From: Verrucomicrobiota bacterium
Lineage (GTDB): Bacteria > Verrucomicrobiota > Verrucomicrobiia > Verrucomicrobiales > DEV007
DNA: 46,116 bases
Direction of reading: 5' to 3'
Assembly (NCBI GenBank): GCA_045046875.1
Contig: JASFYY010000116.1
Location: 1 to 46,116, forward strand
In this document: positions 3,335 through 19,288 of the stretch, one piece after another
Layout: every line of letters begins with the position of its first letter
Position numbering within the stretch: the first letter of the stretch is position 1
Position numbers and translations under genes: made by a program
Notes under the pieces: generated by a model
The model's input: the letters and a program-made list of their open reading frames with translations, nothing else
Told to the model about the DNA's origin: nothing
The model's database searches: none

Positions 3335-5236
3335 CTATTTCTCTGGGACAAAAATATCCAATTGCTTCAGCCTATGTTCAAGATATCTAAGATCATCAAT
3401 GGGAATAGGTTGATCTCTTACTATATTTTCCACCTGTTCAGTGTCTTTACGTTGGTTCCAGAGCCAGACCAGATACACCAACGTGTTCCGACGTAAATCA
3501 TCGTTCCCTAAAGCCATAACCCATTCGAGAGTGTCATCTGGATTGGCAAACCAATTCTTCCCAACCAATAATCCTAGTATTGCGAATGATTGTAATTTCT
3601 TATCTTTGATATCTTCCGCGTAGGTGACTGCGGCGCCTTCATCAATGGTGACCCAAACCGATAAGACCCCTTGAATTGCTCCGTTATATGCAATAGGCCG
3701 CTCCAGTCGCTTCGCAAAGGCTAGCCCCGCATCAACCGTGTCACGCTTGACCAACAATTCCGCCAACCGCTGCGACATATTTTCCAATTGCATTCGCTCC
3801 GGAGTAAATTTCACGTAACTTTTTATCGCTCTATCCAGATCGTAATCCGCCATCTTGAGAGTTGCATCTCGAACGCTGATCCATTGATCCGGCCACCATT
3901 GACCTGCCTCCAGCGCATCGAGAATCCGTCCTGGATCCTCGTTGGCCAAATACTTTCCCGCTGCTCGAAAAAAGGTCACCCTCGTCTTTCTGTCTTTCAG
4001 GTTTTCACCAAATTCCCAAGCCGCCTCGGTGTCGGATTCAATCCATCGCCTGACTAGCCCACTCAGTGCTAGCAGCTTCAAATCGCCGTCAGGCATAGCG
4101 AGGATTTCTTTGGCTAACTCTCCTTCTTTTCCCTTGGTGTGATACGCCGTCCAGTCTTTTTTCTTGGGCGCTTCTTCCTTTGCCTTTTGTTCTGTGGTTA
4201 GTTTTTCCGCATCTTTCTGTGCTAGTAATGTGCCTGAAAATAAAGCAACCGTTATGACCAAAGCGATAAAAATACCAAGCGATGAGGGTAAAGCTTTGCG
4301 GCTATTCGATGTTTTCAAGATTCTCTCAATCCGGCAAAGAAGGTCATCATTGTTCGCTGCCTGAGCCAGTTGTGAAACCTCTTCTAGACGACTACTCTCC
4401 AGACTTGTCAATGCCTTGGCGTAATCAAACCGACTCTCACTTCTTTTCAACACCATGTCATCACATGCAAATTCCCTTTCACGTCGCAGACGTCGCGACA
4501 CCCACCAGACTGCCGGATGAAAGAAGAGAACCGTTTCTGCTATTGTTTGCATAAGATTGATCAAATAATCCTGCCTTCTGATATGAGCTAACTCGTGAGC
4601 CAGTATCAATTCGATCTGCTGGTGTGACAATCCGGCCAATGCGGAGACCGGAAGAAGAATCACCGGCTTCAACCATCCAAATGTTATGGGTGATATAACA
4701 CGGGAGTGTTTTAAAAGAATAACCTTTCTACGAATCCCAATGCGCCCAATCACGTTATCAAATGCCGCGAGAATATTGCCTTCTTCCACGGGAATACTCC
4801 GCTTACGAAGATAGTGGAGATTGAACCACGCGCCGGTGAGTCGTAATGCGAATAAAGCGGCGCCCATGAACCACCCGATTCCTATCCAAATTCGCCATGT
4901 CGACACATTCTTCACTGATACCGAGATGAAAGAATCATCCACGAAAAATCCTTTCTCTAGCAAAGTGTGATTGGGTACACTTCCGCTTGGTGCTGAAATA
5001 GAATGTAACCTCGCAAGGGATGATTGATCTGATCCCTGGCGCATCACTGTTACAACTGGCAATGCGATCATTAGCGCCAACGCAACTGCAGCGGCAGCAG
5101 AGCGAACACGAGGACAAACAAAGGTGTATTGAATCGCTGCATACCCCGCAGCTATCACGACTCCCTGCCAGAGAAAGTGCAGCAATGCGAACCCGGCTCG
5201 GTCAAATAATTCGAGATGTAGAGTTGTGAAATTCAT
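3335..5236 (-). CDS. blaR1: BlaR1/MecR1-family M56 metallopeptidase signal transducer with an alpha-helical C-terminal extracellular domain
   Basis: LLHFLWQG, SPITFGWLKPVILLP, HELAHIRRQD zinc motif, FFHPAVWW and EREFACDD; ATGA overlap with blaI. Symbol is family-level only. Confidence 0.92.
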   Translation of the reverse strand: MNFTTLHLELFDRAGFALLHFLWQGVVIAAGYAAIQYTFVCPRVRSAAAAVALALMIALPVVTVMRQGSDQSSLARLHSISAPSGSVPNHTLLEKGFFVDDSFISVSVKNVSTWRIWIGIGWFMGAALFALRLTGAWFNLHYLRKRSIPVEEGNILAAFDNVIGRIGIRRKVILLKHSRVISPITFGWLKPVILLPVSALAGLSHQQIELILAHELAHIRRQDYLINLMQTIAETVLFFHPAVWWVSRRLRREREFACDDMVLKRSESRFDYAKALTSLESSRLEEVSQLAQAANNDDLLCRIERILKTSNSRKALPSSLGIFIALVITVALFSGTLLAQKDAEKLTTEQKAKEEAPKKKDWTAYHTKGKEGELAKEILAMPDGDLKLLALSGLVRRWIESDTEAAWEFGENLKDRKTRVTFFRAAGKYLANEDPGRILDALEAGQWWPDQWISVRDATLKMADYDLDRAIKSYVKFTPERMQLENMSQRLAELLVKRDTVDAGLAFAKRLERPIAYNGAIQGVLSVWVTIDEGAAVTYAEDIKDKKLQSFAILGLLVGKNWFANPDDTLEWVMALGNDDLRRNTLVYLVWLWNQRKDTEQVENIVRDQPIPIDDLRYLEHRLKQLDIFVPEK

Positions 5237-5619
5237 TTTTTCTTCCCTGTATTTTCCAATTTATCGATAAGTTTCCGGATTTCGCACAGTTCTTCCGGTG
5301 ACGTCGGATTCTCCGACAGTGCCGAAAGAACAAGCTTCGAGGTGGATCCCCCAAACACTTTGTCCTGTAATTCCCCAAGCAATTGACGAGCAGTTTGTTT
5401 TTGATTGTGGTCAGCAGAATAAATATGACTGCGTGCGGATTCATCTCTATTCACAAGTCCCTTTTCATGCATGATTTGCATTAATTTCAGGATTCCGGTG
5501 TATCCCGTTTTTTGTCCCTGTTCCTCCCATACCTGCTTTACCGTTCTTGGCCCTTGCGTCCAAAGGACGTGTAAAATTTCCAGCTGAGCTTCTGTGGGCT
5601 TCTGTTTTTTGCAGTTCAT
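5233..5619 (-). CDS. blaI: BlaI/MecI/CopY-family transcriptional repressor
   Basis: PTEAQLEILHVLW, GYTGILKLMQIMHEKGLVNRD and VFGGSTSKLV; directly upstream of the M56 gene. Symbol is family-level only. Confidence 0.93.
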   Translation of the reverse strand: MNCKKQKPTEAQLEILHVLWTQGPRTVKQVWEEQGQKTGYTGILKLMQIMHEKGLVNRDESARSHIYSADHNQKQTARQLLGELQDKVFGGSTSKLVLSALSENPTSPEELCEIRKLIDKLENTGKKK

Positions 5620-5974: not shown

Positions 5975-7828
5975 TCATGTCGAGAGCATCGCCTGAGCCC
6001 GCTGAAGCTCATCGGCGAAATCTGGTGACTTGTAGCGCTCGGGTACCAGCGCGGGGTAGCTGCTGGTGGAGGCGGCGATCAGGGATTGTGCGGTACGTTT
6101 CGCCACGATGCCCTTTGAAGCCGACCAGGTTTCAAGCACACGGGTCACCGTCATTTCCGCAACATCCCGGCGAGCGCTCTTCACTTCACGGATAAGAAAA
6201 TCCAGGTCGCGATTCGAGTACCAGTCGGTGGCTGCCACCACCTGATCCAGCTCCTCACTTTCCAGCACGATTCCCTTTAGGGCGAACATGGCCTTGAAGA
6301 AGTCTTTACGCTCATCGCCCTCCAGATCGAAAATCGGGATTTGTTTCGGTGCGCGGCTGAGCACGTCGGGATCGAGTAGATCGGGCCGGGTAGTCATCAG
6401 GCACCAGACGACTTTTGAGAGCAGTCCCTTGTCGGACATCATCTTGATGATGTTTGCCATCAGGCGCTTCTCAGTAGCGTGGGTTCCACCGGAATGGATG
6501 CTGCCGAAGGCGGCGTGCGCTTCATCGACGAGGATGGCGACCTTGCCGTAAATCTCCACGTAGCGTCGGACCATCTCGAAGAGCCGGTCGGTGCCGCCGA
6601 AATCTGACGAGCGGATCTGCGAAAGCTCGATGACGATGCGTCCGGAGTCCGCGGCGTGGGCCTCGACATTGAAGGTCTTACCGACGCCGTTTGGCCCGGA
6701 AACGACGAAGGCGGAGATGGCGGTGTCCGGGTCCTCGCAGTCGCGGAAGACACGCTTGATGGCATCACGCGGGCCTTGATAGCCGCGCAGATCCTCATCG
6801 CCATGCTGAGGGCGCTTGATGGTCACCACGCCGTCGAGTTGCGCCATCAGGATGTCATTGAGCAGGGCGTTCACCGCCTCGCGAGTGACCGGTTTTTCCG
6901 AGCGGGCAGATTCTTCCAAGAGTGAGGAAATGGCATTCAGCCCGAGTCCGGCGGATTCCTCGGTGAAGTCCCAGGCACTGTCTCCGAAGGCCGGCGTGGC
7001 GGATTCCGGATCCTTTCGGAACTCTTCGATCTTGTGCTCCACAAAATGGCGACGCGTCGCTTCGTCAGGAAAACCGACCTCGATGATCTGACTGGAGGGC
7101 AGAGAATAGATTCGTGAATTCAGCTCGGCGCGGTTGTCGGACACCAAGATGGTGATGTGTCCGCCAGCGTGGTAGCCGGGATCACTCAGCCAGCTGAGCA
7201 AAGTGGCCAGACGGCTGCGGTCGAGCTCGGAGAGCTTGCCGAAATCCCCCGGTGGAAAGAAAGCTCCGGCCAGGCGGACGATGGTGCAGATGGGTTTGAC
7301 CCGGTTGCCGCTCTCGGTCGCTTCGCGCGCCATCTCGGTGAGTTCACGCAGCAGAACGAGCGCCGCGCCAGGGCGTTGTTTGGTGCGTTCGAGCAATTGC
7401 TCCGGCGTGGGGCTGGCCGGCCTATTAGACTTCTTCTTGCCATGGGAACGAGCACGCAGGTGGCGATTGACGATCTCCGATCCGAAGTCGATCAGCCCAC
7501 CAAGTGAATCCACATCCTCCCCGGATGTGCCCGGCAGATTGTTCCTGTTCCAACCAATGGCATCGAAGAGCGACCGGCGCTGGTCGCTATCGTAGAAACC
7601 GACGCCAAGCGATAGATCGAGCCGGATCATGGTGAAGTGTCCGTCGAAGGACTGGCAAAGACGCTCCTCCAGAGGCGCGTAGCCAGGACCGTCACGATCC
7701 GGAAAGATGCCCATGACATCGCCCGTCAGGACGAAAACTCGCTTGCCACGATGTTTCACGCCATCGACCAGCGACTTCATGAAAGGCGGCGTGGGTCCGG
7801 GAGTGAGGGTGGTTGCTGCCGTGCTCAT
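5975..7828 (-). CDS. Classical-clade AAA+ ATPase with a degenerate N-terminal AAA-like domain
   Basis: Walker A GPNGVGKT, Walker B ILVDEAH and SRH-like TTRPDLLDPDVLSR in the C-terminal half. The N-terminal half lacks Walker A but has IEVGFPDEATRRHFV, typical of the end of an AAA module. Confidence 0.85.
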   Translation of the reverse strand: MSTAATTLTPGPTPPFMKSLVDGVKHRGKRVFVLTGDVMGIFPDRDGPGYAPLEERLCQSFDGHFTMIRLDLSLGVGFYDSDQRRSLFDAIGWNRNNLPGTSGEDVDSLGGLIDFGSEIVNRHLRARSHGKKKSNRPASPTPEQLLERTKQRPGAALVLLRELTEMAREATESGNRVKPICTIVRLAGAFFPPGDFGKLSELDRSRLATLLSWLSDPGYHAGGHITILVSDNRAELNSRIYSLPSSQIIEVGFPDEATRRHFVEHKIEEFRKDPESATPAFGDSAWDFTEESAGLGLNAISSLLEESARSEKPVTREAVNALLNDILMAQLDGVVTIKRPQHGDEDLRGYQGPRDAIKRVFRDCEDPDTAISAFVVSGPNGVGKTFNVEAHAADSGRIVIELSQIRSSDFGGTDRLFEMVRRYVEIYGKVAILVDEAHAAFGSIHSGGTHATEKRLMANIIKMMSDKGLLSKVVWCLMTTRPDLLDPDVLSRAPKQIPIFDLEGDERKDFFKAMFALKGIVLESEELDQVVAATDWYSNRDLDFLIREVKSARRDVAEMTVTRVLETWSASKGIVAKRTAQSLIAASTSSYPALVPERYKSPDFADELQRAQAMLST

Positions 7829-8790
7829 GAGGTTCTGTTGCTGTCCGCGTGATCGTGGTCGAAGTTCGCGATATGCTGGCGGTGCTCGGGGTCGAGCACG
7901 TCCTCATGAACCTTACGCCGTAGTTGGCGGAACTCCGGAAAATCAATGACCGAGGTCGGGTGTGGGTAGTTGCCACCGAGGGCAGCGGTCACGTCGCGGT
8001 CAGTGACGATGCGTGCGCCAATCTGTTCGTCTGCGTTATCCGCCGTCCAGTATTGGGAAAGTCCGATAACCCGGCTGCCGAGGAAAAGCGCCTCGTCCAA
8101 ATCGTGTGTTACGAAGACCACCGTGAGCTGGTGCCGCTCGGCCTGCTCCAGGATAAAGAGCTGCATGTCCTCCCGTGTGCTGTGGTCGAGCGCGCCGAAG
8201 GGCTCATCCATCAGCAGCACCTTGGGTTTCATGATGGTGGCTTGCGCGATGGCTACACGCTGCTGCATGCCGCCGGAAAGCTCGTGCGGGAACTTGTTGC
8301 CATCGTCCTCGGTCAGCCCCACGCTTTCGAGCAAGCTGAAGGCTTCCGCCCGCGCCTCACGAAAGACCCGCCGGTAGCGTGGCCCAATGCTGCGAATCAG
8401 CGATTCAAACGGACCGGTCTGCTGAAGAAGCGGGCCAAGCGCGATGTTATTGGCGACGGTGAGGTGGGCGAAAAGCGAGTAGCGCTGATAGACGATGCCG
8501 GTCTTCGGGCTGACGTGCCTCACCGGCTCACTGTCCACCATGACCTCGCCCGCAGTGGGAAACTGTGAACCCAGAATGAGCCGGAAGAGCGTAGATTTTC
8601 CACACCCGCTCGGGCCAACGATGGTGGTAAACTCTCCCTGACGGATGGTCAAATTCAGCCCTTTGAACACGGTGACCGAGTCACGCTGGAGCTGGAAGCC
8701 CTTGTCGAACTTCAGCTTTGGCTTTGATTCATAGGTCACCTCCGTATTCCGGAGTTCGACGACCGCTTTTCTCTCTTCGTTCATGCTCAT
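7825..8790 (-). CDS. ABC transporter ATP-binding protein (NitT/TauT type)
   Basis: GPSGCGKST, LSGGMQQR, LLMDEPFGALD, FVTHD. Confidence 0.95.
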   Translation of the reverse strand: MSMNEERKAVVELRNTEVTYESKPKLKFDKGFQLQRDSVTVFKGLNLTIRQGEFTTIVGPSGCGKSTLFRLILGSQFPTAGEVMVDSEPVRHVSPKTGIVYQRYSLFAHLTVANNIALGPLLQQTGPFESLIRSIGPRYRRVFREARAEAFSLLESVGLTEDDGNKFPHELSGGMQQRVAIAQATIMKPKVLLMDEPFGALDHSTREDMQLFILEQAERHQLTVVFVTHDLDEALFLGSRVIGLSQYWTADNADEQIGARIVTDRDVTAALGGNYPHPTSVIDFPEFRQLRRKVHEDVLDPEHRQHIANFDHDHADSNRTS

Positions 8791-8803
8791 GTCGGTTGTT
8801 AGG

Positions 8804-9652
8804 TCAGCGGCCAGCGAGCCATCTGTAGCGGTACTTGATCCACAGACTGATTGCCAGATCCAGCAGAAACATCAGCAGAGTTAACCAGATTACGTAGACG
8901 ATGGTCGAGTCCATTGCCGTCGTGCGGTAGAATTTAATGAAGATGCGATAACCAATGCCTGCCTCTGCAGAAATGGATTCGCCGGCAATCATCAGCACGG
9001 CCATCACCCCGAGGTTCAGACGAATCGTATTGAGCACGTCTGGCCAGATTTGTGGAAAAACCACGCGCCATGGCAGCTCCAGTTCGCAAGAGCCTAGGCT
9101 CTGCGCCTTGTAGAACTGCTGTCGCGGTAGCGCCTTCGCACGCAGGTAGGTGTCCAGGCAGACCATTGGAAAGACGGCGAGCACAATCAGTCCGACCTTG
9201 GCCACCTCACCGGTGCCGAGGGTCAGGAAAAGAATGGATAACAGGGCCAATGCGGGAACCATGCTCAGGATGACCATGATGGTCTTTCCCAAGGATTCGG
9301 CCCACGGGTAGCTGCCCATCATCACGCCAATAGGCACGGCGAGCAGGATCACTGCCATCGCCCAGCCCATGCGCTTGAAGCTGGCGACAGTGTCCTTGTA
9401 GAGCATGAACTGGCGTTCAAGCCGCAGTTCCTTGCGGCGTGTGCTCTCACTCTCTGCCTCGGGAATCGGCAGAGCTACTTTTTTCGCCGCAGTGACCAGC
9501 TTCCCAGCTGTCGGCATCAGTTTAGCGCGATCAGTATCTGCGAGGTCCGAAGACTTCTTCACATACATAAAGCAGAGGAAGATCACCGGCAGCAGCTTCA
9601 GGACAAGCCTGCCGAGCCAAGGGATCCGTGCATCTGTGCGCAGGTATTTCAC
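8804..9652 (-). CDS. ABC transporter permease (NitT/TauT type)
   Basis: Multiple TM segments; EAA-like loop KAQSLG...RVVFPQIWP; GIGYRI motif. Confidence 0.92.
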   Translation of the reverse strand: MKYLRTDARIPWLGRLVLKLLPVIFLCFMYVKKSSDLADTDRAKLMPTAGKLVTAAKKVALPIPEAESESTRRKELRLERQFMLYKDTVASFKRMGWAMAVILLAVPIGVMMGSYPWAESLGKTIMVILSMVPALALLSILFLTLGTGEVAKVGLIVLAVFPMVCLDTYLRAKALPRQQFYKAQSLGSCELELPWRVVFPQIWPDVLNTIRLNLGVMAVLMIAGESISAEAGIGYRIFIKFYRTTAMDSTIVYVIWLTLLMFLLDLAISLWIKYRYRWLAGR

Positions 9653-9684
9653 TGATTTCGATAAGGTTAATGCTCTCAGGATGC

Positions 9685-10728
9685 TTACTTCGAAGCGCTG
9701 AAATTGAAACGCAGCTTCACGTTGTCCTTTTTGCCAAGGACCTCGCCGTCGGCAAATTGAATGCCGATGTAACCAGCGTCATCCGCGTCTTCACCCAGCA
9801 GTGCCTGATCGAAACAGAAATCACGCACCATCGTGGTCGCCTTCTTGTGAGCCTTGGACTTGAGGGCGTCGCCCATGGTGTCCGGCGTGTAGTAGAAGAA
9901 AGTGGTCTTCAGCTGGGCCTTGGCTTCCGCCGCGGTGACGTTGGCTGCCTGTGCGATGGTCGCGATCAGATCCTCGGCCTCCTTACCTCCGCTACTGAGG
10001 GTGTTCATGGCTTCGAACCATGCTCCGGAGATGGCTTTGGCAAGACGCGGATCTTCCTTCAGCAGGTCGCTGCGCATTACAAAACCGTCCAGGATCTCAC
10101 CGGGGATTTTCGAAGAGTCAAAGACATTGGCCACTCCGGGCTGTTGCATCAGGCCAAGAGCGTGCGGGTTCCACGTGACTGTGGATTTTACCTTTGCGTC
10201 ATCACTGGTGAAACCACTGACGATACCCTTCTCAGCACGGTGGGCGAACTTGAAGTCCGACTCCTTCATGCCGCCAAGGACGATACCTCGATAGGTCAGG
10301 TAGTGGCTCACGGTGAACTCCTCGCCATACACAGTTGTGCCCTTGAGACCGGAGATGGATTTCGTTCCGGTGGCGAGCCACATGTCATTGCCATTCGAAT
10401 AATCTCCGACAACGAAAAACGTACAATCGATCCCCGCCTGACTGATCAGGGTGAGGGCATCCATGGTGGTCACGGGGACCACGTCGATGTTCTTCGCCTT
10501 GAAGGCGTCGATGGAGGCCACGTAGCCGAACTCCTTCACGGAGATCTTGATGCCATTGGCCTTGGCGTGTTTGTCGAGCAGTCCGGTATCAGCGAGGTAT
10601 TTCACTGGGCACCAGCCGATATAGTTACTCCAGCCGAAGGTATAGTCACCATCGGCCTGGGCGTTGGCCGTCATGGAAGCGGCTGCGGTTATGGCCACCA
10701 TCAGGGCGGCAATTGCTATTTTTTTCAT
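9685..10728 (-). CDS. ABC substrate-binding protein, urea-carboxylase-region (guanidine-type, TIGR03427-like) family
   Basis: Signal peptide. WSNYIGW, TMDALT, GDYSNGND, VSHYL, VTWNP, FDSSKIPGEI, GAWFE and GKKDNVKLRF match the family pattern as recalled. Confidence 0.85.
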   Translation of the reverse strand: MKKIAIAALMVAITAAASMTANAQADGDYTFGWSNYIGWCPVKYLADTGLLDKHAKANGIKISVKEFGYVASIDAFKAKNIDVVPVTTMDALTLISQAGIDCTFFVVGDYSNGNDMWLATGTKSISGLKGTTVYGEEFTVSHYLTYRGIVLGGMKESDFKFAHRAEKGIVSGFTSDDAKVKSTVTWNPHALGLMQQPGVANVFDSSKIPGEILDGFVMRSDLLKEDPRLAKAISGAWFEAMNTLSSGGKEAEDLIATIAQAANVTAAEAKAQLKTTFFYYTPDTMGDALKSKAHKKATTMVRDFCFDQALLGEDADDAGYIGIQFADGEVLGKKDNVKLRFNFSASK

Positions 10729-10757
10729 AGTATTGTTCGTTGTTGTTGAGTGGATAC

Positions 10758-11579
10758 TCAGGCCTTGAGTTCGCCTTCGTCATCCGTATTTGTTGATTCG
10801 GTGGTCCCTTCCGGGGTGTCTGCTGCGAGCATCTCGTCAAGCAGGTCGAGCCCGTCCTGCTCGACCATGGTGGCCGCCAGCTCGGTCTCAATTGAGTCAG
10901 CGGATGCGCCTTCCAGATCGGACTTGATCTTCGCCTGCTGCTTCATTGCGGAAATGCGGTTGGTGACCGTGCTCAGGGTCGAGCGGTCGGAGGACTGCTC
11001 AAGTCCGCTGAGGCGGTCCATGAGGGCGGAAGTGGTCTTCGCGTCCACGTAGTCAGCGATGGCCTGGGCCTTCTGATCGTCGAGCGCCTTGATTTCGCGC
11101 TGACGCTTGGCCAGTTGCGTCTTGAGATGGTCGAGGCGGCCTTGACGGTCCTCTAGCTCCGGTTGCACCCGGGCCTGCAGCGTGTCTTCGGTCTGCACCT
11201 TGCCCTGATAATCGATGAAGGCACGTTGCCATTTCATCACATCGGGATCACTCTGTGCGGTCTCACGGGTCAGGCCCTTCTCCTTGAGGACCTTGGCGAG
11301 CCGGAGTTTCGCTGTATCGCGCAGCTTGATGAACTTTTCCTCGCGCTCGAGGCTCTCCTCAAGACGATCCTTGCTGGACTCGACACTGGCGGCAAGCTGC
11401 GAGACGGCGTTGATGAACTCGGCGTGGTCCTTGATCTCCTTGTCCTTCTGGATGTCGAAGGCCATGCCGACCCCCTCGGCGGAGGATGTGAAGGTCTCTT
11501 CGGCGGCTTTATTGACTTTTCCGCCAGCCCACAGCCACTTGAAGGTGAGGAACCGGCCAATTGCTTTAAATAATCCCAT
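10758..11579 (-). CDS. PspA/IM30 (bacterial ESCRT-III-like) coiled-coil protein
   Basis: Likely start ATG 11579 (273 aa). Amphipathic N-terminus MGLFKAIGRFL, long coiled-coil hairpin, then short helices and an acidic tail, as in PspA/Vipp1. Divergent. Confidence 0.7.
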   Translation of the reverse strand: MGLFKAIGRFLTFKWLWAGGKVNKAAEETFTSSAEGVGMAFDIQKDKEIKDHAEFINAVSQLAASVESSKDRLEESLEREEKFIKLRDTAKLRLAKVLKEKGLTRETAQSDPDVMKWQRAFIDYQGKVQTEDTLQARVQPELEDRQGRLDHLKTQLAKRQREIKALDDQKAQAIADYVDAKTTSALMDRLSGLEQSSDRSTLSTVTNRISAMKQQAKIKSDLEGASADSIETELAATMVEQDGLDLLDEMLAADTPEGTTESTNTDDEGELKA

Positions 11580-11598: not shown

Positions 11599-12492
11599 TT
11601 ACAGTATTGTGGATGTCTCATTTCGGACATTCCGGAGGAATTCCTTCATGTCCGTTTCCGCCGCCTCGGCGGCGGCGACCACACTAGACAAGCGTGTGGC
11701 GAGGTTGTCGCTGCTTTCATCCAGAGCGAGATCGGAACGACCTGCGTCTGACATGTAAGCACTTTTCAAGGCTGCTTCCAGCTCATTCGAACGGGCGATG
11801 AGTTCATCGCGTTTCGCCGTGAGCTGTTCGTAGCGGTTGATCTGTTGGGTGTGGGCGCTGATTTTGCTATCCAGCACCGTGTGGTTGGTGTCCGCCTTGA
11901 GCCGCTCGTCGGTCCACCCGGCGAGCTCATGGCGCAGCATCGTGATGTTGATACCCGTGAGCGCCGAGTGGATCTCGGCGGCTTGTCGCAGGTGTTCCAC
12001 CCCGGCCTTGCGGGCAGATTCTGCCAGGCCAAGCCGCTGTCCCACGGCGTTACCGAGCTTCGCTCCGGCCCGTGTTTCCAAAAATTCGGTGTATTGGGAA
12101 TAGGCGTCTGACAGCTCGACGGCTTCCTTGGCCGCCTCCGTGAAGCCAAGTTCGCGACACATCTCGGCGACCTCAGCCAGAGCCGTGCGCCGGTCCTGCT
12201 TGAGTTCCTCCATCATCCAGCGGATGTGGCGTTTGGTCAGGGTCTCACCGCGAATCCACATATTGTAAACGAAGGCTGCGGCTCCCACCACCCCCAGCAC
12301 GACCGCAGCGAAGACCCCGAAGAAACCCCAGCTGAATGCTCCGGTGAGCAGCAGGATTCCTCCGGCCAGAGCCAGCGGTATGATCGTGAATGGTGATTGG
12401 ATGCACTTGTTTCGGACGGCTTTAAAGATGGCTTCCTCATCGGTCAGGCTCTCGAGACTGATTTTCTGACGATTTTCATCCTTATCTGTCAT
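11599..12492 (-). CDS. Hypothetical membrane protein (2 N-terminal TM helices plus long helical/coiled-coil domain)
   Basis: Hydrophobic segments FTIIPLALAGGILLLTGAF and FFGVFAAVVLGVVGAAAFVY followed by heptad-like helices; 18-19 bp from both neighbours. Confidence 0.8.
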   Translation of the reverse strand: MTDKDENRQKISLESLTDEEAIFKAVRNKCIQSPFTIIPLALAGGILLLTGAFSWGFFGVFAAVVLGVVGAAAFVYNMWIRGETLTKRHIRWMMEELKQDRRTALAEVAEMCRELGFTEAAKEAVELSDAYSQYTEFLETRAGAKLGNAVGQRLGLAESARKAGVEHLRQAAEIHSALTGINITMLRHELAGWTDERLKADTNHTVLDSKISAHTQQINRYEQLTAKRDELIARSNELEAALKSAYMSDAGRSDLALDESSDNLATRLSSVVAAAEAAETDMKEFLRNVRNETSTIL

Positions 12493-12510: not shown

Positions 12511-14121
12511 TTAGAGTCCTCCGCGTTCGACGAGGATGGCTTCGACGCGCGGGACACGGCCTCGATAGGCTCGTGACCTCGGATTCTCACCTGGTCGGAC
12601 CTCCGGCGGTTGTGAGGAGCCCACGCCCTGGACGAAGAGGCGGTCCTCGTCGAAGCCGTGGATCAGTATCAGCCGCTTCTTCACCACTTCGGCGCGCAGG
12701 CTGGAGAGTTCGCGGTTCTCCTCGCTGTCCTGCCCGCCAGTGTGGCCGCGGATGATCACCCGATAGTTCGGATAGTTGATAGCGAGGAGCTTGGCGATCT
12801 TGTCGGCCTCCTCGGCGGCGCCGACTTCAAATTGCGTCTTGTTACGAAAACGGATGAGGCGGACCTGGAGCTTGGCGACTTCATTGAGCTTGATCCACGC
12901 GTCGGCCTTGAGCGGTTCGAAATCGTAGGCTCCGTCATCGCCCTGTCCGAGCGAACGTGGCGCGGCGTTCTTGAGGGCTTCGAGAACACGGGAGTTCACC
13001 AGACGATAGGGGTCGTTGATTTCCGAAGCACCGATGCGACCAGCGTCCACCAGCACATCGATGCAGGATAAAATGGTATCGATCACTCCTTCCTGTGGAG
13101 CGATGTTCGAACCGTTCATGGCGATTCCAAACTGCTGCTGGCAGTTGTCATGAAGGTCCAGCCAGTCGATCTTGTGTTCGTTCACGATAGCCTCCACGGC
13201 GGAACGATCAATATCCGCCCAGTGGGCCATGTCCGTGGTCAGCTCCTCGGAGTTGCGGCGGTAGTGGTCAAGTGCTCGGAAGTAAGCCTTGAAGTATTTC
13301 AGCACATCACCCTCGCGTTTCGCCAGCGTCTGCTTGTTGACCACGAAGTAGTCGACGATGTAGCCCGCGAATTTGTCCGAGCCCCAGATATAGGTGAGAT
13401 TCGGGTTTTTTTTCAGCGCCCGGGAAATATCAGGTTCCCACATTACGAAGACATCGCCCTGACCGTTCATCGCACGGGTGTAGACCTCCGCGGAGGAACC
13501 CACCGGCTTGCGCCAGTCCCCGCGCTGTGATCCGCCCTGCTCATCGGCGGCGCGGAGGTTGAAAAAATCCAGGTCCTTGACGGTGATGTCCACCAGGAAC
13601 TCGCTCGGGCTCTCGCCGGTATAGACCCACTTCAGCGCGTCATCATTGAGGTTCGCCACATCATTATTGGGCAGCTTGTCCTTGAGCACGACGATGCCGT
13701 CACCGCCATTGGACCGGGCGATGCCCACAACCATTACCCCAGGAAATCCCTTTGCTCTCCCGTGAATCAAATACTCGGCAGCAGGGATGGCGATGATGTC
13801 ATACTCCCCGGTCGCAAGCTTGGAGACCCGCTCGGCGATCACCGCACCGTCATCGACCCATTGAATACCCAGCCCTTGGCGCGCGGCTTCCTTCTTCGTC
13901 TGCTTGGACGAGGCAAAGAAGTATCCGAGGTAGCCATCGCCCGCGATCTTGAGTGTGGAGTTCACCTTGGCGTCCGAGATGTCGCGCTCAAATTGCTCGG
14001 CCTTCTCCTGTTCTGCCTGTTCCTGCTGTTTCCTGAAGAAGGGCTTGATGGCGAACCATGCCCCGGCCACCAGGGCGCAGACAACAAAGAGCAGCACGGC
14101 GATCTTTGATGTGGAATTCAT
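12511..14121 (-). CDS. TM-anchored substrate-binding (NMT1/SsuA-like) domain fused to a C-terminal OmpA-like domain
   Basis: N-terminal TM; RSNGGDGIVV, MWEPDIS and IVDYFVV; C-terminal IIRGHTG...NRELSSLRAEVV...RLFVQGVGSSQP...RVE. Confidence 0.85.
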   Translation of the reverse strand: MNSTSKIAVLLFVVCALVAGAWFAIKPFFRKQQEQAEQEKAEQFERDISDAKVNSTLKIAGDGYLGYFFASSKQTKKEAARQGLGIQWVDDGAVIAERVSKLATGEYDIIAIPAAEYLIHGRAKGFPGVMVVGIARSNGGDGIVVLKDKLPNNDVANLNDDALKWVYTGESPSEFLVDITVKDLDFFNLRAADEQGGSQRGDWRKPVGSSAEVYTRAMNGQGDVFVMWEPDISRALKKNPNLTYIWGSDKFAGYIVDYFVVNKQTLAKREGDVLKYFKAYFRALDHYRRNSEELTTDMAHWADIDRSAVEAIVNEHKIDWLDLHDNCQQQFGIAMNGSNIAPQEGVIDTILSCIDVLVDAGRIGASEINDPYRLVNSRVLEALKNAAPRSLGQGDDGAYDFEPLKADAWIKLNEVAKLQVRLIRFRNKTQFEVGAAEEADKIAKLLAINYPNYRVIIRGHTGGQDSEENRELSSLRAEVVKKRLILIHGFDEDRLFVQGVGSSQPPEVRPGENPRSRAYRGRVPRVEAILVERGGL

Positions 14122-14205: not shown

Positions 14206-14967
14206 TTACAGGTCGCCCGCCGCACTATCGTCGAGTTCGGCGAGGGTCTCCTTCATCGCGCCAAGCAATTCCTGCTCGTCGTTGGCGCTGAAGTAAGCCT
14301 CCGAATATTGGCGTAGCGGGTGGGCGCTCTTGATGTGGAATCCGATCGTGTAGATTGGCACATGGTAGTCGCGTGCGAAGGTGATGCTCTTGTTGAACAT
14401 CCCCTGGTCGCTGGCCCGGCCATCCGTCACAACCACCAAGCGGACATCTCCGTAGCGCAGTTGCTTCTGGAACTGGGCGATCAGTGCCTTTGTTCCGGTT
14501 TGGATTGCCGCGCCAAGAGGGGTGCCGCCGCCGGCATTGATTTGACTGATTTCGGTTGCGAGCTGTTTGCGCTGTGTATCGCCGCGCCCGAGTGCCACCA
14601 CTTCCCGTCCGTCACTGCTGTTTGCATCGAATACGAAGAGCCCGATGTTCAAATTGTCGGGTGCTCCGGCGATGAAGGCGGCGACCGCGCTCTTGGCTTC
14701 CTCTATCGACTGGCCGGTCATACTGCCACTGCCGTCGAAGACGATGTAAACGTTAGAGCTGGGGTCCATTTTCGAACCCGGAGGCGTCGTATTGGCAATC
14801 GGTTCCTGGTCGAACGACCTCTTGCTGGCTTTGGCCGTGACCATCGGGCTTTCGAAAGCTTGTTGGCGTTCCGACGTGGTGAGGGAGCCACTACTTGATT
14901 TTTCACAACCCGTCGCCAGCAGCGCCGCCAGGGCGATGAGCCCCATAGGATAAAGCTTATTCTTCAT
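14206..14967 (-). CDS. vWA-domain lipoprotein
   Basis: Lipobox LATGC; complete MIDAS DGSGS...GGTPL...VVTDG; IPIYTIGF-like end (VPIYTIGF). Confidence 0.92.
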   Translation of the reverse strand: MKNKLYPMGLIALAALLATGCEKSSSGSLTTSERQQAFESPMVTAKASKRSFDQEPIANTTPPGSKMDPSSNVYIVFDGSGSMTGQSIEEAKSAVAAFIAGAPDNLNIGLFVFDANSSDGREVVALGRGDTQRKQLATEISQINAGGGTPLGAAIQTGTKALIAQFQKQLRYGDVRLVVVTDGRASDQGMFNKSITFARDYHVPIYTIGFHIKSAHPLRQYSEAYFSANDEQELLGAMKETLAELDDSAAGDL

Positions 14968-14986: not shown

Positions 14987-16741
14987 TTAAAAATCAATTT
15001 TCACGTCGTCGCCGACCTCGAGCACCTCAAGGCGCTCCAGAATAATCACGCCGCGGCGGTTTTCCGCACGTTTCTTCGGAGTGTCAGCGTTCTCATAAAC
15101 CGGAACGACTGCACCGCGACCAATGGCGACGATGCGGTTCTCGTCCAAGACCAGCCCTTCCGATTTACAATAACTCACAAAAGCATCACGCAGCGCTTCG
15201 GCGCGCTGGGCGGACTTCGTTTTGAGCGAACGCTCCAACAGCGTAGCGGTCTGCTGGGTAGGAGATGAGGACATCTTCAAAACCTTTTGGATCTTGCCGA
15301 GCAGAACATTGTCGTTCCTCTCCAGTGCCTGGAGCAGACGCATCAGCAGATAGCCGTCCGCATGTGCTTCGATAATCATCGTGGTGCCCGCATAGGTGTC
15401 GACCATGCTCATCGCCTGCTTGAAGTAATTCTTCAAATTGGCGTCTTTGGCATCGAAGGAATTCTGGTTCGCTGCGAAGGGAACAGTGAAGTCGAAGAGC
15501 GCAGTATCGCGTTCACTCAGTTCTGGATTTTCCATCAAGAACTGCTCGATCTTCTGCTGTGCTTGCTCGGGGCTTTTGAAGACCGACTTGGCAACCTTTA
15601 CCTCACCGGCGTATTTCAGTCCGGCACCCAGCGCGGCCCAATCCCATCCGGCGACGGGCATATCAAAACGACCGATACCGCGTCCGGCCCTCTCAAAAGC
15701 CACCTGAATCTCCTCGGTCAGCGTTTCCATGCTGCGTGTGGTTCCTTGACCGGTGAAAAAAGCCACGTTGCCGGAATGGCCGACAAGTTCCGCCTCTGAA
15801 AGCATTGCCTCAGTATCGCCTACAAGTCCGGCATCACCCAGCAGCAGTTTGGCAGAAGCGGCCATCACCTTGCGGTGCTCGGCGCTGCGTTTGGCCTTGC
15901 CATCCACCAGATCGCGCAGCGACTCCTGCGCCTTGAGCAAGCTCTTGACGAAACCCTCGACCGTCTTGCGATTGGCGTCGAAGTAATCCTTACGCACGGC
16001 ATAGACGTCGGGAATGATGCGGCTCGCCTGCTTTGAGGTGAAAAAGATCTTTGCTCCCTTCACCGCGTAGTCGCCCTCGGTCAGCGCAGCGGCGTCCGGC
16101 GAGATCACCCACACCGCGTCGATGTCATCACGCACCTCGAACAAGCCGGGAGGCGAGGATATCTTGTCACCCCCGCCGTCGAGCGGAGCGGCAAGTTCGG
16201 GCAGGTAGACAAACTTCACCTTGGAAGGGTCCGCGCCAGCATCCTGCAGGACCTTGATGGCAGGGTGTTCGTGCGGCCCGTAAAGCTGTACGGCCACCGT
16301 CTTGATGTCCTTGAGGGACTTCACCCGATCGCGCACGACCAAGCAGTCGCCACCATTGCTCCACGAGAGTTGATAGATCACCACGAGGTCCGTGCCTGCG
16401 TTTTGGAAGGCCTTCCGGGCCTGCAGAATCATCGGCAGTGTGCCTCGCAAATAGGGAGAGCTGCCGTTCAGGCAGTTGTCCACCTGGGCGGGGAAATTAT
16501 CTTCCCGGTAGAGTTTGGAATCTGGCAGGATTCCGTCCATCACGGCTAACTGGGTAGCGACATCCGCCCCCCAGGCAATCACCGGGATCTTCTTGTCATT
16601 ACTCACCGGTTTAAGTTGGGATTTGGTGATCGTCTCGAGTGGCTTATAGGGCAGAATATCAGCTTTTTGCGCAAAGCTGATTGCGGGCGTGAGGCAGAGC
16701 AGCATGGCAGCGGCTTGTGCTGTAAGTGCGGAAGTCTTCAT
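14987..16741 (-). CDS. Exported substrate-binding (NMT1/SsuA-like) protein with a C-terminal OmpA-like domain
   Basis: Signal peptide; WSNGGDCLVV and IIPDVYAVRKDYF; C-terminal IIEAHAD...SAQRAEAL...RIVAIGRG...ENRR. Confidence 0.85.
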   Translation of the reverse strand: MKTSALTAQAAAMLLCLTPAISFAQKADILPYKPLETITKSQLKPVSNDKKIPVIAWGADVATQLAVMDGILPDSKLYREDNFPAQVDNCLNGSSPYLRGTLPMILQARKAFQNAGTDLVVIYQLSWSNGGDCLVVRDRVKSLKDIKTVAVQLYGPHEHPAIKVLQDAGADPSKVKFVYLPELAAPLDGGGDKISSPPGLFEVRDDIDAVWVISPDAAALTEGDYAVKGAKIFFTSKQASRIIPDVYAVRKDYFDANRKTVEGFVKSLLKAQESLRDLVDGKAKRSAEHRKVMAASAKLLLGDAGLVGDTEAMLSEAELVGHSGNVAFFTGQGTTRSMETLTEEIQVAFERAGRGIGRFDMPVAGWDWAALGAGLKYAGEVKVAKSVFKSPEQAQQKIEQFLMENPELSERDTALFDFTVPFAANQNSFDAKDANLKNYFKQAMSMVDTYAGTTMIIEAHADGYLLMRLLQALERNDNVLLGKIQKVLKMSSSPTQQTATLLERSLKTKSAQRAEALRDAFVSYCKSEGLVLDENRIVAIGRGAVVPVYENADTPKKRAENRRGVIILERLEVLEVGDDVKIDF

Positions 16742-17375: not shown

Positions 17376-17834
17376 TCAATCCTGTTTCATGCCAAGCCCC
17401 TGAATGAACTTTCTCAATACCTGTTCGGGACAGAGCCGATAGTTGCGGTGCCCTTCCTTTCGAAAAAATGATCTGAGTTCGGCTTTGGTGACGACAAAAT
17501 CAACCTTTTCGAACACGGCAATCACATCTTCATCGCGCATTCCCAGAGCGATACGAAGCTTTTTGAGAATCTCGTTATTGCTAAGAACCTCTAAAGGCTC
17601 AGGAACCGTGCCATCGGGGCGATCACCTCGTTTTTCAATAATGAGCCCATCAAAAAAACGACAAAGATTCGCATCTGAAATGCTTTTGCAGCCCTGCTCG
17701 TCCTCACGTTTCAACCAGCGGCTCACCTGGGATCGGGTGGTTTCCTGCCCTGTTTTACTAATGATCTCAGCCACCTTTGCATCGTTGATGTCCAAAGCGT
17801 GGCGCAAGCGGCGCAAAATGTCATTATTCGTCAT
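17376..17834 (-). CDS. yehS: DUF1456 (YehS) family protein
   Basis: Duplicated NNDILRRLR/NNEILKKLRIAL halves, FFDGLIIEKRG and FRKEGHRNYR. Confidence 0.92.
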   Translation of the reverse strand: MTNNDILRRLRHALDINDAKVAEIISKTGQETTRSQVSRWLKREDEQGCKSISDANLCRFFDGLIIEKRGDRPDGTVPEPLEVLSNNEILKKLRIALGMRDEDVIAVFEKVDFVVTKAELRSFFRKEGHRNYRLCPEQVLRKFIQGLGMKQD

Positions 17835-18037: not shown

Positions 18038-19288
18038 ATGACTGACTCCCGCCAAACCCGCATCAAAAACGCTCTCTGGGGACTCTTCGCCGGCGATGCG
18101 CTCGCGATGCCGGCACACTGGTTCTACAAGATCCAGAATATCAAAGACATTTTCGACGGTGGAATCACTCAATACGAAGCGGCCCCGCACCCTCATCCCG
18201 AGAGTTTCATGGTCGGCATGGGCTATCACCCTGACGTCAAGGCAGCGCAATCACTGGGACGTCCCTATGACACCCTTCACGAGCACGCCCGCTTCTACGA
18301 CACCTCCTTTTCGGAGCTCAAGATCGCGACGGGTGAGCGCGAGTCCGAACACGGCAATGCGACTCCGTCGCTCGAAGACCGCTATCACTATCACCACGAC
18401 CTTAAGGCGGGAGATAACACCACCGCCGCACAGCTCGTGCGGGTCTTGCTGCGCTCTGTCGCCACAGAGGGCCGCTATGACGAGGATGCCTTTCTGCGGG
18501 AATTCGTCACCTTCATGACGACGCCCAGAAAGCTCAAAGATCCCTACCAGGAGATCTACCTGCGGAGCTGGTTTGAGAATTTTTCCCAAGGTCGTCCCCC
18601 GCACAGCGCCGCCGAACGACAGCGTCGCGTCTGGTCAATCGGTTCTCACGGAGGCATGATCCGGCCTCTGGTGCTTTCCCTCCTTGGCGAGACCGACTAT
18701 CTCGCTCTCGGCATGGCGGTGGAACATCAAAATCTCACCCACCGCTCGGAGAATGTGGCCGCTGCTCTCGGTATCACCGTGCCGCTGCTACAGGATCTTA
18801 TTACCGGCAAAAACCCCATGCAGGCCGCGACAAAACATTCCGCGTCCCTCCGGGTGCCGAAGATCACCGGAGAGGAAATGTTCGCGATGTATCGCGAACA
18901 CCAGGGCCCCGGTAATATCCCGTCGCGAAAAATGTGGCAACTTCACACCCAGCTCTCTGACACGGGTTTTGACCTCGCCTCCATCGCGCAGCAGTCACCC
19001 GAAGACGTCGTGCTCAAACAGTTCGGCACGGCCTGCTACCCCGAACATGGCCTCCCGCTTCTGCTCTACTGTGCGGCTCATCATCAGTTTGACCCCGAAG
19101 CGGCCCTTCTCACCAATGTGAACGCCGGTGGGGATAACGTGCATCGCAACGCCGTGCTCGGTTTGCTTGTAGGAGCCGCCTGCGAATCTTTCCCGGAGCA
19201 CCTCCGCGAAGGACTTTCCGACGCACAAGCGTTACAGCATGAGATTGATGCCTTCGTCGAAGTCGCCGCTTCAGGGGACGTTTGGTAG
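18038..19288 (+). CDS. ADP-ribosylglycohydrolase-family protein (divergent)
   Basis: ALWGLFAGDALAMPAHWFY, LTH and NVNAGGDNVHRNAVLGLLVGA. Confidence 0.85.
   Translation: MTDSRQTRIKNALWGLFAGDALAMPAHWFYKIQNIKDIFDGGITQYEAAPHPHPESFMVGMGYHPDVKAAQSLGRPYDTLHEHARFYDTSFSELKIATGERESEHGNATPSLEDRYHYHHDLKAGDNTTAAQLVRVLLRSVATEGRYDEDAFLREFVTFMTTPRKLKDPYQEIYLRSWFENFSQGRPPHSAAERQRRVWSIGSHGGMIRPLVLSLLGETDYLALGMAVEHQNLTHRSENVAAALGITVPLLQDLITGKNPMQAATKHSASLRVPKITGEEMFAMYREHQGPGNIPSRKMWQLHTQLSDTGFDLASIAQQSPEDVVLKQFGTACYPEHGLPLLLYCAAHHQFDPEAALLTNVNAGGDNVHRNAVLGLLVGAACESFPEHLREGLSDAQALQHEIDAFVEVAASGDVW

Follow-up and report, generated by a model that had tools for sequence, protein, structure and literature searches.

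A PspA/Vipp1-type protein and a tandem AAA+ ATPase, a candidate remodeling motor, travel together in a conserved bacterial operon

Introduction

The closest described relatives of the locus analyzed here are operons reported by Ravi et al. 2024 (mSystems, PMC11237479), in which the membrane-repair protein PspA accompanies two AAA modules ("inactive classical AAA + classical AAA"), and whose long form also encodes a TM-"Snf7" protein, an ABC ATPase, a permease and a PBPB+OmpA protein (examples AEY64321.1 and OGG56892.1). ATP-dependent membrane remodeling was proposed for them and an analogy with Vps4 was drawn; as the same inference was made there for this operon type, the pairing of PspA with a motor is not new. 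According to a 2025 review, a Vps4-like ATPase appears to be absent in bacteria (PMC7619361), and a 2021 paper on Vipp1 left open the existence of an equivalent ATPase (PMC8281802). ATP hydrolysis by PspA alone has been reported in vitro (PMC11746142), which means that PspA does not strictly depend on an external motor. Here we analyze an operon from a Verrucomicrobiota bacterium encoded within a stretch of 46,116 nucleotides (hereafter, the window), for which an initial annotation had suggested a bacterial pair comparable to ESCRT-III and Vps4.

Results

According to their ORF coordinates, the PspA-like and AAA+ ATPase genes are members of one nine-gene operon on the minus strand, to which all the positions given below refer, with three ABC genes (binding protein, permease, ABC ATPase) separating them and a further four genes upstream of the PspA-like gene, reaching position 16741. 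The first gene of the operon (14987..16741) encodes a 584 aa putative fusion of an NMT1/SsuA-like periplasmic binding protein and a degenerate OmpA-like domain (NMT1, E 7e-4; SsuA_fam, 1.5e-6; weak OmpA-family matches at residues 510-570), with an N-terminal signal-like segment, and has an equivalent position in many of the relative loci. It is followed by the gene of a 253 aa vWA-domain protein (14206..14967; VWA, E 1.5e-16), a probable lipoprotein with a lipobox-like LATGC identified by sequence reading, and by that of a 536 aa protein (12511..14121) combining a putative membrane-anchored binding-protein domain (weak TIGR03427/SsuA matches, hydrophobic residues 1-29) with an OmpA peptidoglycan-binding domain (E 6e-12 at residues 427-511, with matches to OmpA domains in PDB). 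Next come a two-TM helical protein (11599..12492) and the PspA-like protein (10758..11579), both described below. The ABC trio consists of a 347 aa TIGR03427-like substrate-binding protein (9685..10728; 321.4 bits versus a cut-off of 333.9), with no sequence relative found in PDB, a 282 aa TauC/SsuC-like permease (8804..9652; BPD_transp_1, E 1e-13; TauC, 5e-20), and a 321 aa ATP-binding subunit (7825..8790; ABC_tran, E 1.5e-32), whose stop codon lies in a 4-base overlap with the start of the 617 aa AAA+ ATPase gene (5975..7828). Both the PspA-like and the ATPase ORFs were found where the initial annotation had placed them, in the same operon. Promoter and terminator scans of the window gave results near chance, with TTGTCA-16-TACAAT at 16955-16928 as a promoter candidate only, and neither riboswitches nor other ncRNAs were found in the window at Rfam gathering scores. 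The nine-gene order is maintained in relative loci across many phyla, and cultured carriers of the operon include Haloferula luteola, H. rosea, Sulfidibacter corallicola and Acanthopleuribacter pedis.

The PspA-like ORF encodes 273 aa and ends in the tail quoted in the initial annotation; its ATG start at 11579 is supported by the fact that most of its close homologues are also 273 aa long. Its proposed PspA/Vipp1-type identity was borne out at the family level, with a family profile matching Vipp1 with an E value of 1.8e-11 and the best eight profile matches all being Vipp1. PF04012 was matched by 20 of the 140 family members, and the window's protein by itself matched no Pfam family. The AF2 model (pLDDT 80) predicts helices at residues 2-31, 34-101, 112-194, 202-222 and 241-253, which make up an amphipathic helix 0 followed by a long hairpin, short helices at the distal end and a flexible tail; the family additionally has some 20 residues inserted close to the hairpin tip. 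Among non-polar windows, the hydrophobic moment peaks at residues 1-13. Foldseek searches with this model returned Vipp1 in the best four rows, at E values of 0.0016 or worse (above 0.001), and a wide fold search, which is uninformative for a helical hairpin of this kind, placed PspA (4whe; Z 11.5, rmsd 2.8, 121 aligned residues) in a tie with unrelated hairpins. The product of 10758..11579 is, as judged from its family profile and predicted helix layout, a divergent PspA/IM30 (Vipp1-type) protein within the ESCRT-III superfamily; its gene was the only PspA-like one found in a search of its own genome.

Regarding the acidic unstructured tail highlighted in the initial annotation, the lack of structure held, with no helix past residue 253 and low AF2 confidence, and the acidity did not prove to be a family feature. 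The net charge of the last 21 residues is -6 in the window's protein, the family median is -2 (n = 140), and 33 of these 140 members have a neutral or basic tail, a survey that ruled out acidity as the signal. What is conserved is the terminal six residues, preceded by a variable linker. They are of the xELKA type in the window's clade (10761..10778), where they are a candidate ATPase-engagement tag, of the RPxI type in most relatives, and of the KT[LM]G type in others. The best 30 PF04012 loci of Acidobacteriota comprised 10 from ATPase-bearing genomes, of which 5 had the KT[LM]G-type motif, and 20 from genomes lacking the ATPase, none of which had it (0 of 20). In a nested subclade of 11 PspA members, the terminal motif is absent, the long tail and the TM partner are still there, and in 10 of the 11 genomes no full-length tandem ATPase was found; in the sister group, the TM neighbor has been lost, a distant locus encodes the ATPase, and the motif is kept. 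This tracking comes down to one loss among related, incomplete genomes, concerns the KT[LM]G subclade, which is different from the window's, and has two exceptions, genome G349, with a KISS-type tail, where the tandem ATPase was not found, and genome G507, with a distant tandem ATPase. A complex prediction between residues 10-617 of the ATPase and 232-273 of PspA, run without controls, scored 0.29 versus a mark of 0.32. A short C-terminal tag of PspA that follows the presence of the motor suggests a way in which the two proteins may meet.

The initial annotation had also described the ATPase as classical-type, and the sequence agrees with it, with a PF00004 match at residues 375-498 and neither GAFTGA nor any match to sigma54-activator or HTH families. 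Two AAA+ modules were recognized, an N-terminal D1 (about residues 15-331), predicted to be alpha/beta AAA-like and devoid of Walker motifs, and a C-terminal D2 with a Walker A (GPNGVGKT, 378-385), a Walker B (D435/E436) and R492. The catalytic residues of D2 are identical in 47 of 47 aligned relatives. In the window clade the motor is atypical: pore loop 1 of D2 reads S-D-F-G, having lost the first aromatic that most relatives retain; the second region of homology holds a single arginine throughout the subfamily. The best profile and Foldseek matches were p97, Rix7 and Drg1 (12-18% identity), which are threading unfoldases, and a language-model search with D1 gave an AAA lead only, with a score under 0.9. 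On sequence grounds, the protein is a two-module classical AAA+ ATPase, with a dead D1 and an active D2, and is neither Vps4 nor PspF-like.

Membership of the Vps4 family was not sustained, given the tandem D1-D2 arrangement, a branch of its own in the AAA tree and the lack of Vps4-specific domains: no MIT domain was matched in 35 members of the ATPase family, nor Vps4_C in the members searched. Scores against the CdvC and CDC48 models were 31 bits (cut-off 650) and 29 bits (cut-off 803), respectively. An AAA tree of 81 rows was obtained in quick mode, and further analysis used 27 chosen rows, in which all the Vps4-like references were bacterial. There, the family forms one side of a 100/100 branch, and topology tests rejected a grouping of the window clade with the Vps4-like rows (p-AU 0.001), and rejected neither a sister position of the whole family to the Vps4-like rows (p 0.21) nor one to Cdc48 D2 (p 0.30). 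A Vps4 orthologue is ruled out on architecture (no MIT, two modules).

Regarding the co-occurrence of both genes, PspA was detected near 43 of 49 assessable ATPase loci, defined as those with at least 4.3 kb of upstream sequence; the six other close loci had no PspA neighbor. Where the ATPase was detached, PspA was encoded elsewhere in the genome in all five genomes tested. In a set of 301 Verrucomicrobiota genomes, the six carrying PspA of the window's clade were the six best ATPase scorers, with the genes on one contig, and the other five ATPase genomes had a more distant PspA-like gene within the same cluster. PspA is found directly upstream of the ATPase, without the ABC trio, in loci L007, L026, L057 and L066, and 11 of the 16 distant loci have it as a bare partner upstream. 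PspA neighbors were missing from 5 of 16 distant Verrucomicrobiales ATPase loci and from 11 of 31 in Acidobacteriota, and a tblastn search of plasmids gave four distant matches, with no annotated PspA in the two regions inspected. PspA and the ATPase are associated with each other in many phyla, bare pairs included, and PspA is, from these gene neighborhoods, the most constant partner of the ATPase.

The 297 aa product of 11599..12492, with hydrophobic residues 30-80, is a probable membrane adaptor. Operons with the exact gene order of Ravi et al. were recovered among the relatives, and the profile of this two-TM protein matches that of their TM gene (probability 96, E 5e-9), which makes it the positional and profile homologue of the published TM+Snf7 gene. 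Profile comparisons detected no homology to Snf7, PspA or PspM. PspM was the nearest named cluster in a language-model search (score 0.90, family on 40% of the members), a lead that was left unconfirmed by the PspM profile, which missed the TM gene in 5 genomes. One UniRef name suggested XpaC, and no XpaC match was present among the best 25 of 72 Pfam families.

Discussion

Family identities, operon structure and co-inheritance come directly from the computation. The mechanism that we propose for them is an envelope-maintenance module in which a PspA-type ESCRT-III protein would have a dedicated two-ring AAA+ motor. PspA would use helix 0 to bind the cytoplasmic membrane on its inner face and would polymerize, like Vipp1 and PspA, and the two-TM protein would recruit or nucleate it. 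The ABC importer, the vWA lipoprotein and the binding proteins tethered by OmpA would be accessory periplasmic parts through which the site is linked to the wall or to a signal from a solute. The ATPase would form a hexamer in which the dead D1 is a scaffold or docking ring and D2 hydrolyzes ATP; engagement of the short motif ending the flexible tail of PspA would lead to subunits being pulled out, and their extraction to a recycled or reshaped polymer. To say that the pair works like ESCRT-III/Vps4 is reasonable because a PspA/Vipp1-type protein and a classical, non-PspF ATPase travel together across phyla, and we infer that the ATPase probably takes hold of PspA by its tail, with remodeling or disassembly of the polymer as the outcome. 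A more specific form, to which we would give slightly less than even chances, is an ESCRT-III recycling machinery that arose in bacteria independently from Vps4, in which an MIT-less tandem AAA+ ATPase reads a clade-specific C-terminal tag of PspA (RPxI, xELKA, LPE, KT[LM]G), as the functional counterpart of the MIM, with tag and motor co-varying (in the window clade, a changed tag and a changed D2 pore loop) and the module tied to the wall via OmpA-anchored binding proteins.

Other clients for the ATPase were considered. It might act in the assembly or extraction of the two-TM protein or of a membrane-tethered SBP-OmpA/vWA complex, PspA being a co-regulated protector whose tail binds something else. 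In many distant operons the TM gene does immediately precede that of the ATPase, frequently with translational coupling, 19 of the 31 Acidobacteriota loci have it, and vWA proteins are partners of AAA+ chaperones in MoxR systems; we nevertheless regard this explanation as unlikely, given the bare PspA-ATPase pairs without detected TM, vWA or SBP genes (e.g., L066), the persistence of a PspA+TM subclade without the ATPase, and PDB and fold matches that place the ATPase in the classical clade and not with MoxR.

Still less likely, in our opinion, is that the operon is chiefly a machine for solute import or envelope trafficking with PspA and the ATPase as its assembly factors, although six of its nine genes encode ABC, binding-protein or vWA parts in a widely retained order, and the binding protein is only slightly below the TIGR03427 cut-off. 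The trio is missing between PspA and the ATPase, or displaced, in the four loci named above, it is absent from L099-L101, L108, L109 and L112, where PspA and the ATPase are still there, and the window has no Rfam riboswitch. A regulatory role like that of PspA-PspF, with PspA keeping the ATPase inactive until membrane stress frees it to act on other targets, has a precedent in the inhibition of PspF by PspA (PMC7619361), and the hairpin-tip insert could be a binding surface; yet neither a DNA-binding nor a GAFTGA element is present in the ATPase, and no conserved target gene was found downstream of it in the inspected loci, which makes this role highly improbable.

Returning to the preferred reading, extraction of PspA by the ATPase, operons of this type are direct candidates for encoding the missing bacterial Vps4-like ATPase, as already proposed in 2024, and if the tail-tag model were true, ATP-driven recycling of ESCRT-III would have arisen at least twice. 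What is added to the 2024 work is a terminal motif, which is conserved where tail acidity is not, together with the cultured carriers listed above; the examined parts of the text and supplement of Ravi et al. 2024 (PMC11237479) contain no mention of tail motifs. The published operon and that of the window have PspA, the dead-plus-active ATPase, the ABC ATPase, the permease and PBPB+OmpA in common, whereas the window differs in its gene order, its two SBP-OmpA genes, its separate SBP and its vWA protein. Unlike that of the published operon, its PspA is too divergent for Pfam, and the "Snf7" label of the TM protein was not reproduced in the homologous gene.

Compared to the ESCRT-III/Vps4 systems (Snf7/CHMP-Vps4; CdvB-CdvC), the locus likewise couples, genetically, a classical-clade AAA+ ATPase to an ESCRT-III-superfamily protein whose flexible tail has a motif at its end; it differs in that its protein belongs to the PspA/Vipp1 branch and not to Snf7, that its two-module ATPase is of another family on a separate branch, that it would work with no MIT-MIM contact, and that it has periplasmic and ABC partners. 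With the type II AAA+ unfoldases (p97/Cdc48/VAT, Rix7/NVL, Drg1/Afg2) the ATPase shares the D1-D2 architecture, but it has no N-terminal double-psi-barrel domain, its D1 lacks Walker motifs, and it forms its own branch. The enterobacterial PspA-PspF system likewise combines PspA and an ATPase, whereas that of the window has no sigma54-activator features, and the likeness to the mycobacterial PspA-PspM system is in the association of PspA with a two-TM anchor.

Organization of the operon

Examination of the minus strand revealed an operon of nine genes running from 16741 to 5975, separated by 13-84 bases except that the last gene overlaps its predecessor by 4 bases, in the order SBP+OmpA-like, vWA lipoprotein, TM-anchored SBP+OmpA, two-TM helical protein, PspA-like protein, SBP, permease, ABC ATPase and tandem AAA+ ATPase. 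The two reading frames that the initial annotation had proposed as a possible ESCRT-III/Vps4-like pair, encoding the PspA-like protein (10758-11579) and the AAA+ ATPase (5975-7828), are both present. Just downstream, in DNA of lower G+C content, lies a BlaI/BlaR1-type pair (penicillinase repressor and M56 peptidase, 3335-5619), which was not seen to be a conserved neighbour. Upstream are a DUF1456 protein (17376-17834), an ADP-ribosylglycohydrolase (18038-19288) and a SecDF P1-head-domain protein (19387-20727), and short ORFs on either side of a lactonase gene (45-299 and 1931-2173) resemble, by eye, integrase/transposase remnants.

The G+C content of the operon block is 57.8%, compared to 51.0% for the genome, with none of 474 10-kb genome bins as high, and a close PspA together with a close ATPase was found in 2 of 61 genomes in a sample of relatives (own genome counted) and in none of five congeners. 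This high G+C content and patchy presence fit horizontal gain or frequent loss of the operon.

Identity of the PspA-like protein and the ATPase

As a single sequence the PspA-like protein matched no Pfam family, and PF04012 was matched by 20 of the 140 members of its family alignment (fragments and most near-duplicates excluded). With the family profile as query, the eight highest-ranked PDB rows were all Vipp1 structures (best E 1.8e-11), the family having about 20 extra residues inserted near the tip of the hairpin. In an AlphaFold2 model (pLDDT 80), helix 0 is followed by a long hairpin, two short helices and a tail without structure; the N-terminus is amphipathic. Fold searches agreed weakly, with Vipp1 in the top four Foldseek rows (E above 0.001) and PspA level with unrelated hairpins in VIA. 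By its family profile, the product is assigned to the PspA/Vipp1 branch, in agreement with the initial annotation, and not to the Snf7 type; the unstructured tail described there is likewise present in the model, but its acidity is not conserved across the family. No second PspA-like gene was found in the host genome (94.7% complete).

The PF00004 match of the ATPase is confined to residues 375-498; the N-terminal half is AAA-like in topology and has no Walker motifs. Walker A, Walker B and a single arginine show no variation among all 47 aligned relatives, and the subfamily carries one arginine instead of two in the second region of homology. The model matched p97, Rix7, Drg1 and NVL in Foldseek, and the sequence profile preferred Afg2/Drg1, VAT and p97. 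An active-domain tree of 27 rows was computed with bacterial Cdc48 D1/D2, FtsH, TPR-AAA and Vps4-like references, the last being bacterial proteins that match the CdvC model below its cut-off and may not be true orthologues. Grouping of the window's clade with these Vps4-like rows was rejected (p-AU 0.001); placement of the whole family as sister of the Vps4-like rows (p 0.21) or of Cdc48 D2 (p 0.30) was not. The absence of MIT or Vps4_C families in 35 members, the two-module build and the separation of the family from all reference groups by a 100/100 branch indicate that the window's ATPase is not a member of the Vps4 family.

In operons of the order published by Ravi et al. (2024, PMC11237479), the gene just before the ATPase, which they label TM+Snf7, encodes a homologue of the two-TM protein (probability 96). 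Similarity to Snf7, PspA or PspM was not reproduced in the comparisons made, and the protein is probably a membrane adaptor.

Co-occurrence of PspA and the ATPase

A survey of close relatives found 68 loci with the ATPase, and the 49 with at least 4.3 kb upstream were used (L031 and L033 being copies in one organism). The loci span Verrucomicrobiota, Acidobacteriota, Melainabacteria, Planctomycetota, Myxococcota, Nitrospinota, Bacillota and others. As raw counts in which kin are not independent, a PspA gene lay near the ATPase in 43 of the 49 and was absent in six. All five genomes with a detached ATPase had PspA elsewhere; three of them belong to the six PspA-less loci, with loci L011, L020 and L044 outside this check. 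A single draw of 301 Verrucomicrobiota genomes contained 11 with the ATPase (E 1e-40 or better) and six with the window's PspA clade; these six were the top six ATPase scorers, with both genes on the same contig, and the other five had a more distant PspA-like gene inside the ATPase cluster (profile match probability 89). The ATPase family occurred in 32 of 201 Acidobacteriota genomes, with a PspA neighbour at 20 of 31 fetched loci and none at 11; 18 of 25 scanned positional candidates passed the Pfam PspA cut-off. At distant Verrucomicrobiales loci, PspA was directly upstream of the ATPase with no further operon gene detected in 11 of 16, and missing in five. PspA is thus the most constant partner of the ATPase, and the ABC trio (SBP, permease, ABC ATPase) is dispensable.

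Several loci had particular layouts. In Acanthopleuribacter pedis the operon occurs on two scaffolds (L031 and L033) with identical layout and scores, a duplication or an assembly artefact, and at L030 three operon genes are each broken into two frames, probably by long-read frameshift errors. One tandem-ATPase subclade (L123, L125, L128, L130-L132) adjoins a protein of ~500 aa in place of PspA; four of the six genomes encode a PspA elsewhere, with (K/R)ISS as its conserved end. At L133 and L135-L138 a conserved protein of ~215-227 aa precedes pspA, with no Pfam match better than E 0.001 (two scanned).

A terminal motif in PspA

Among 46 locus PspAs, 38 ended in an RPxI-like motif, six, from the window's clade, in xELKA-like, and two in neither. 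Each of the final four positions was identical in 27-33 of 40 paired sequences, with positions -7 to -15 unconserved. Other ATPase subclades had their own ends, LPE, RQKI, KE[LM]GP and KT[LM]G. D2 pore loop 1 has an aromatic residue in most relatives and reads S-D-F-G in the window's clade (six loci plus the window), where this altered loop (SDFGG, residues 407-413; 6674-6697 region) accompanies the altered PspA end; as a paired change in one lineage, this is only suggestive. Locus L044 has the same pore loop, yet no PspA neighbour.

As a control we used the best 30 of 49 PF04012 matches from the same 201 Acidobacteriota genomes, with 10 more fetched later, and a motif pattern derived from ATPase-linked proteins and fixed in advance. 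Of the best 30, ten came from ATPase genomes, and five of these ten had the KT[LM]G-type motif (L200 being one without it), versus 0 of 20 from other genomes. In a PspA tree computed with tails removed, an 11-member subclade (SH-aLRT 100) nested among ATPase-linked PspAs had a long tail and still adjoined the TM gene but lacked the motif; searches of its 11 draft genomes found no full-length tandem ATPase in 10 and a distant one in the remaining genome, G507. Its sister trio had lost the TM neighbour and kept the motif, with the ATPase elsewhere in the genome. This suggests that the tag is read by the ATPase rather than by the TM protein. The tracking represents one event, in draft genomes and in a subclade other than the window's. 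Genome G349, with a KISS-type tail and no ATPase found, counts against a general tag-ATPase link.

Proposed mechanism and alternatives

Starting from the observed family identities and co-inheritance, we moderately favour a model in which PspA would form polymers on the membrane and the tandem ATPase would grip its terminal tag, pulling subunits out through the active ring. OmpA-tethered parts in the periplasm, together with the importer, may localize or cue the response. Every step is modelled on the precedents of Vipp1/PspA and of type II AAA+ proteins. That the TM protein or a periplasmic complex is the client instead seems unlikely given the bare PspA-ATPase loci and the subclade that kept PspA and its TM neighbour where the ATPase was mostly not found. 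A transport-first machine, to which the importer genes would lend themselves, is less probable still, the ABC trio being dispensable. PspF-like regulation we consider very improbable, no HTH family match or GAFTGA element having been found in the ATPase. The tail motif sharpens the test of the PspA-ATPase extraction model.

Comparison with known systems

A different system was found in another Verrucomicrobiota family, at L139 (G077:C75:5691-9743), L148-L157 and L175 (G206, a 6.1-Mb single contig), comprising an FHA protein, a Snf7-like protein, a single-module AAA and a zinc-ribbon gene, with kinase-like genes in G206. Its Snf7-like protein matched PF03357 just under the cut-off (E 9e-6), with PDB matches of its profile limited to yeast Snf7 (E about 0.1), and its AAA protein matched the CdvC model over residues 17-368. 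Of 61 genomes surveyed in that family, 11 carried this ATPase, and eight of the 11 had the Snf7-like gene no more than 1.5 kb away. As a bacterial ESCRT-III/Vps4 candidate, this system comes closer than the window's operon does.

The literature searched yielded no experimental work on the tandem ATPase family, nor did it mention the tail motifs; subscription papers, bioRxiv supplements and the web application of Ravi et al. may hold either. Other sources used were PMC7619361, PMC10936438, PMC8281802 and PMC11746142. The window's operon is real, conserved and functionally plausible, and adds another example to an operon type already described: in Ravi et al. (2024, PMC11237479), PspA is paired with an inactive+active AAA protein, longer operons add an ABC ATPase, a permease and PBPB+OmpA, and the PspA/AAA pair is likened to Snf7/Vps4.
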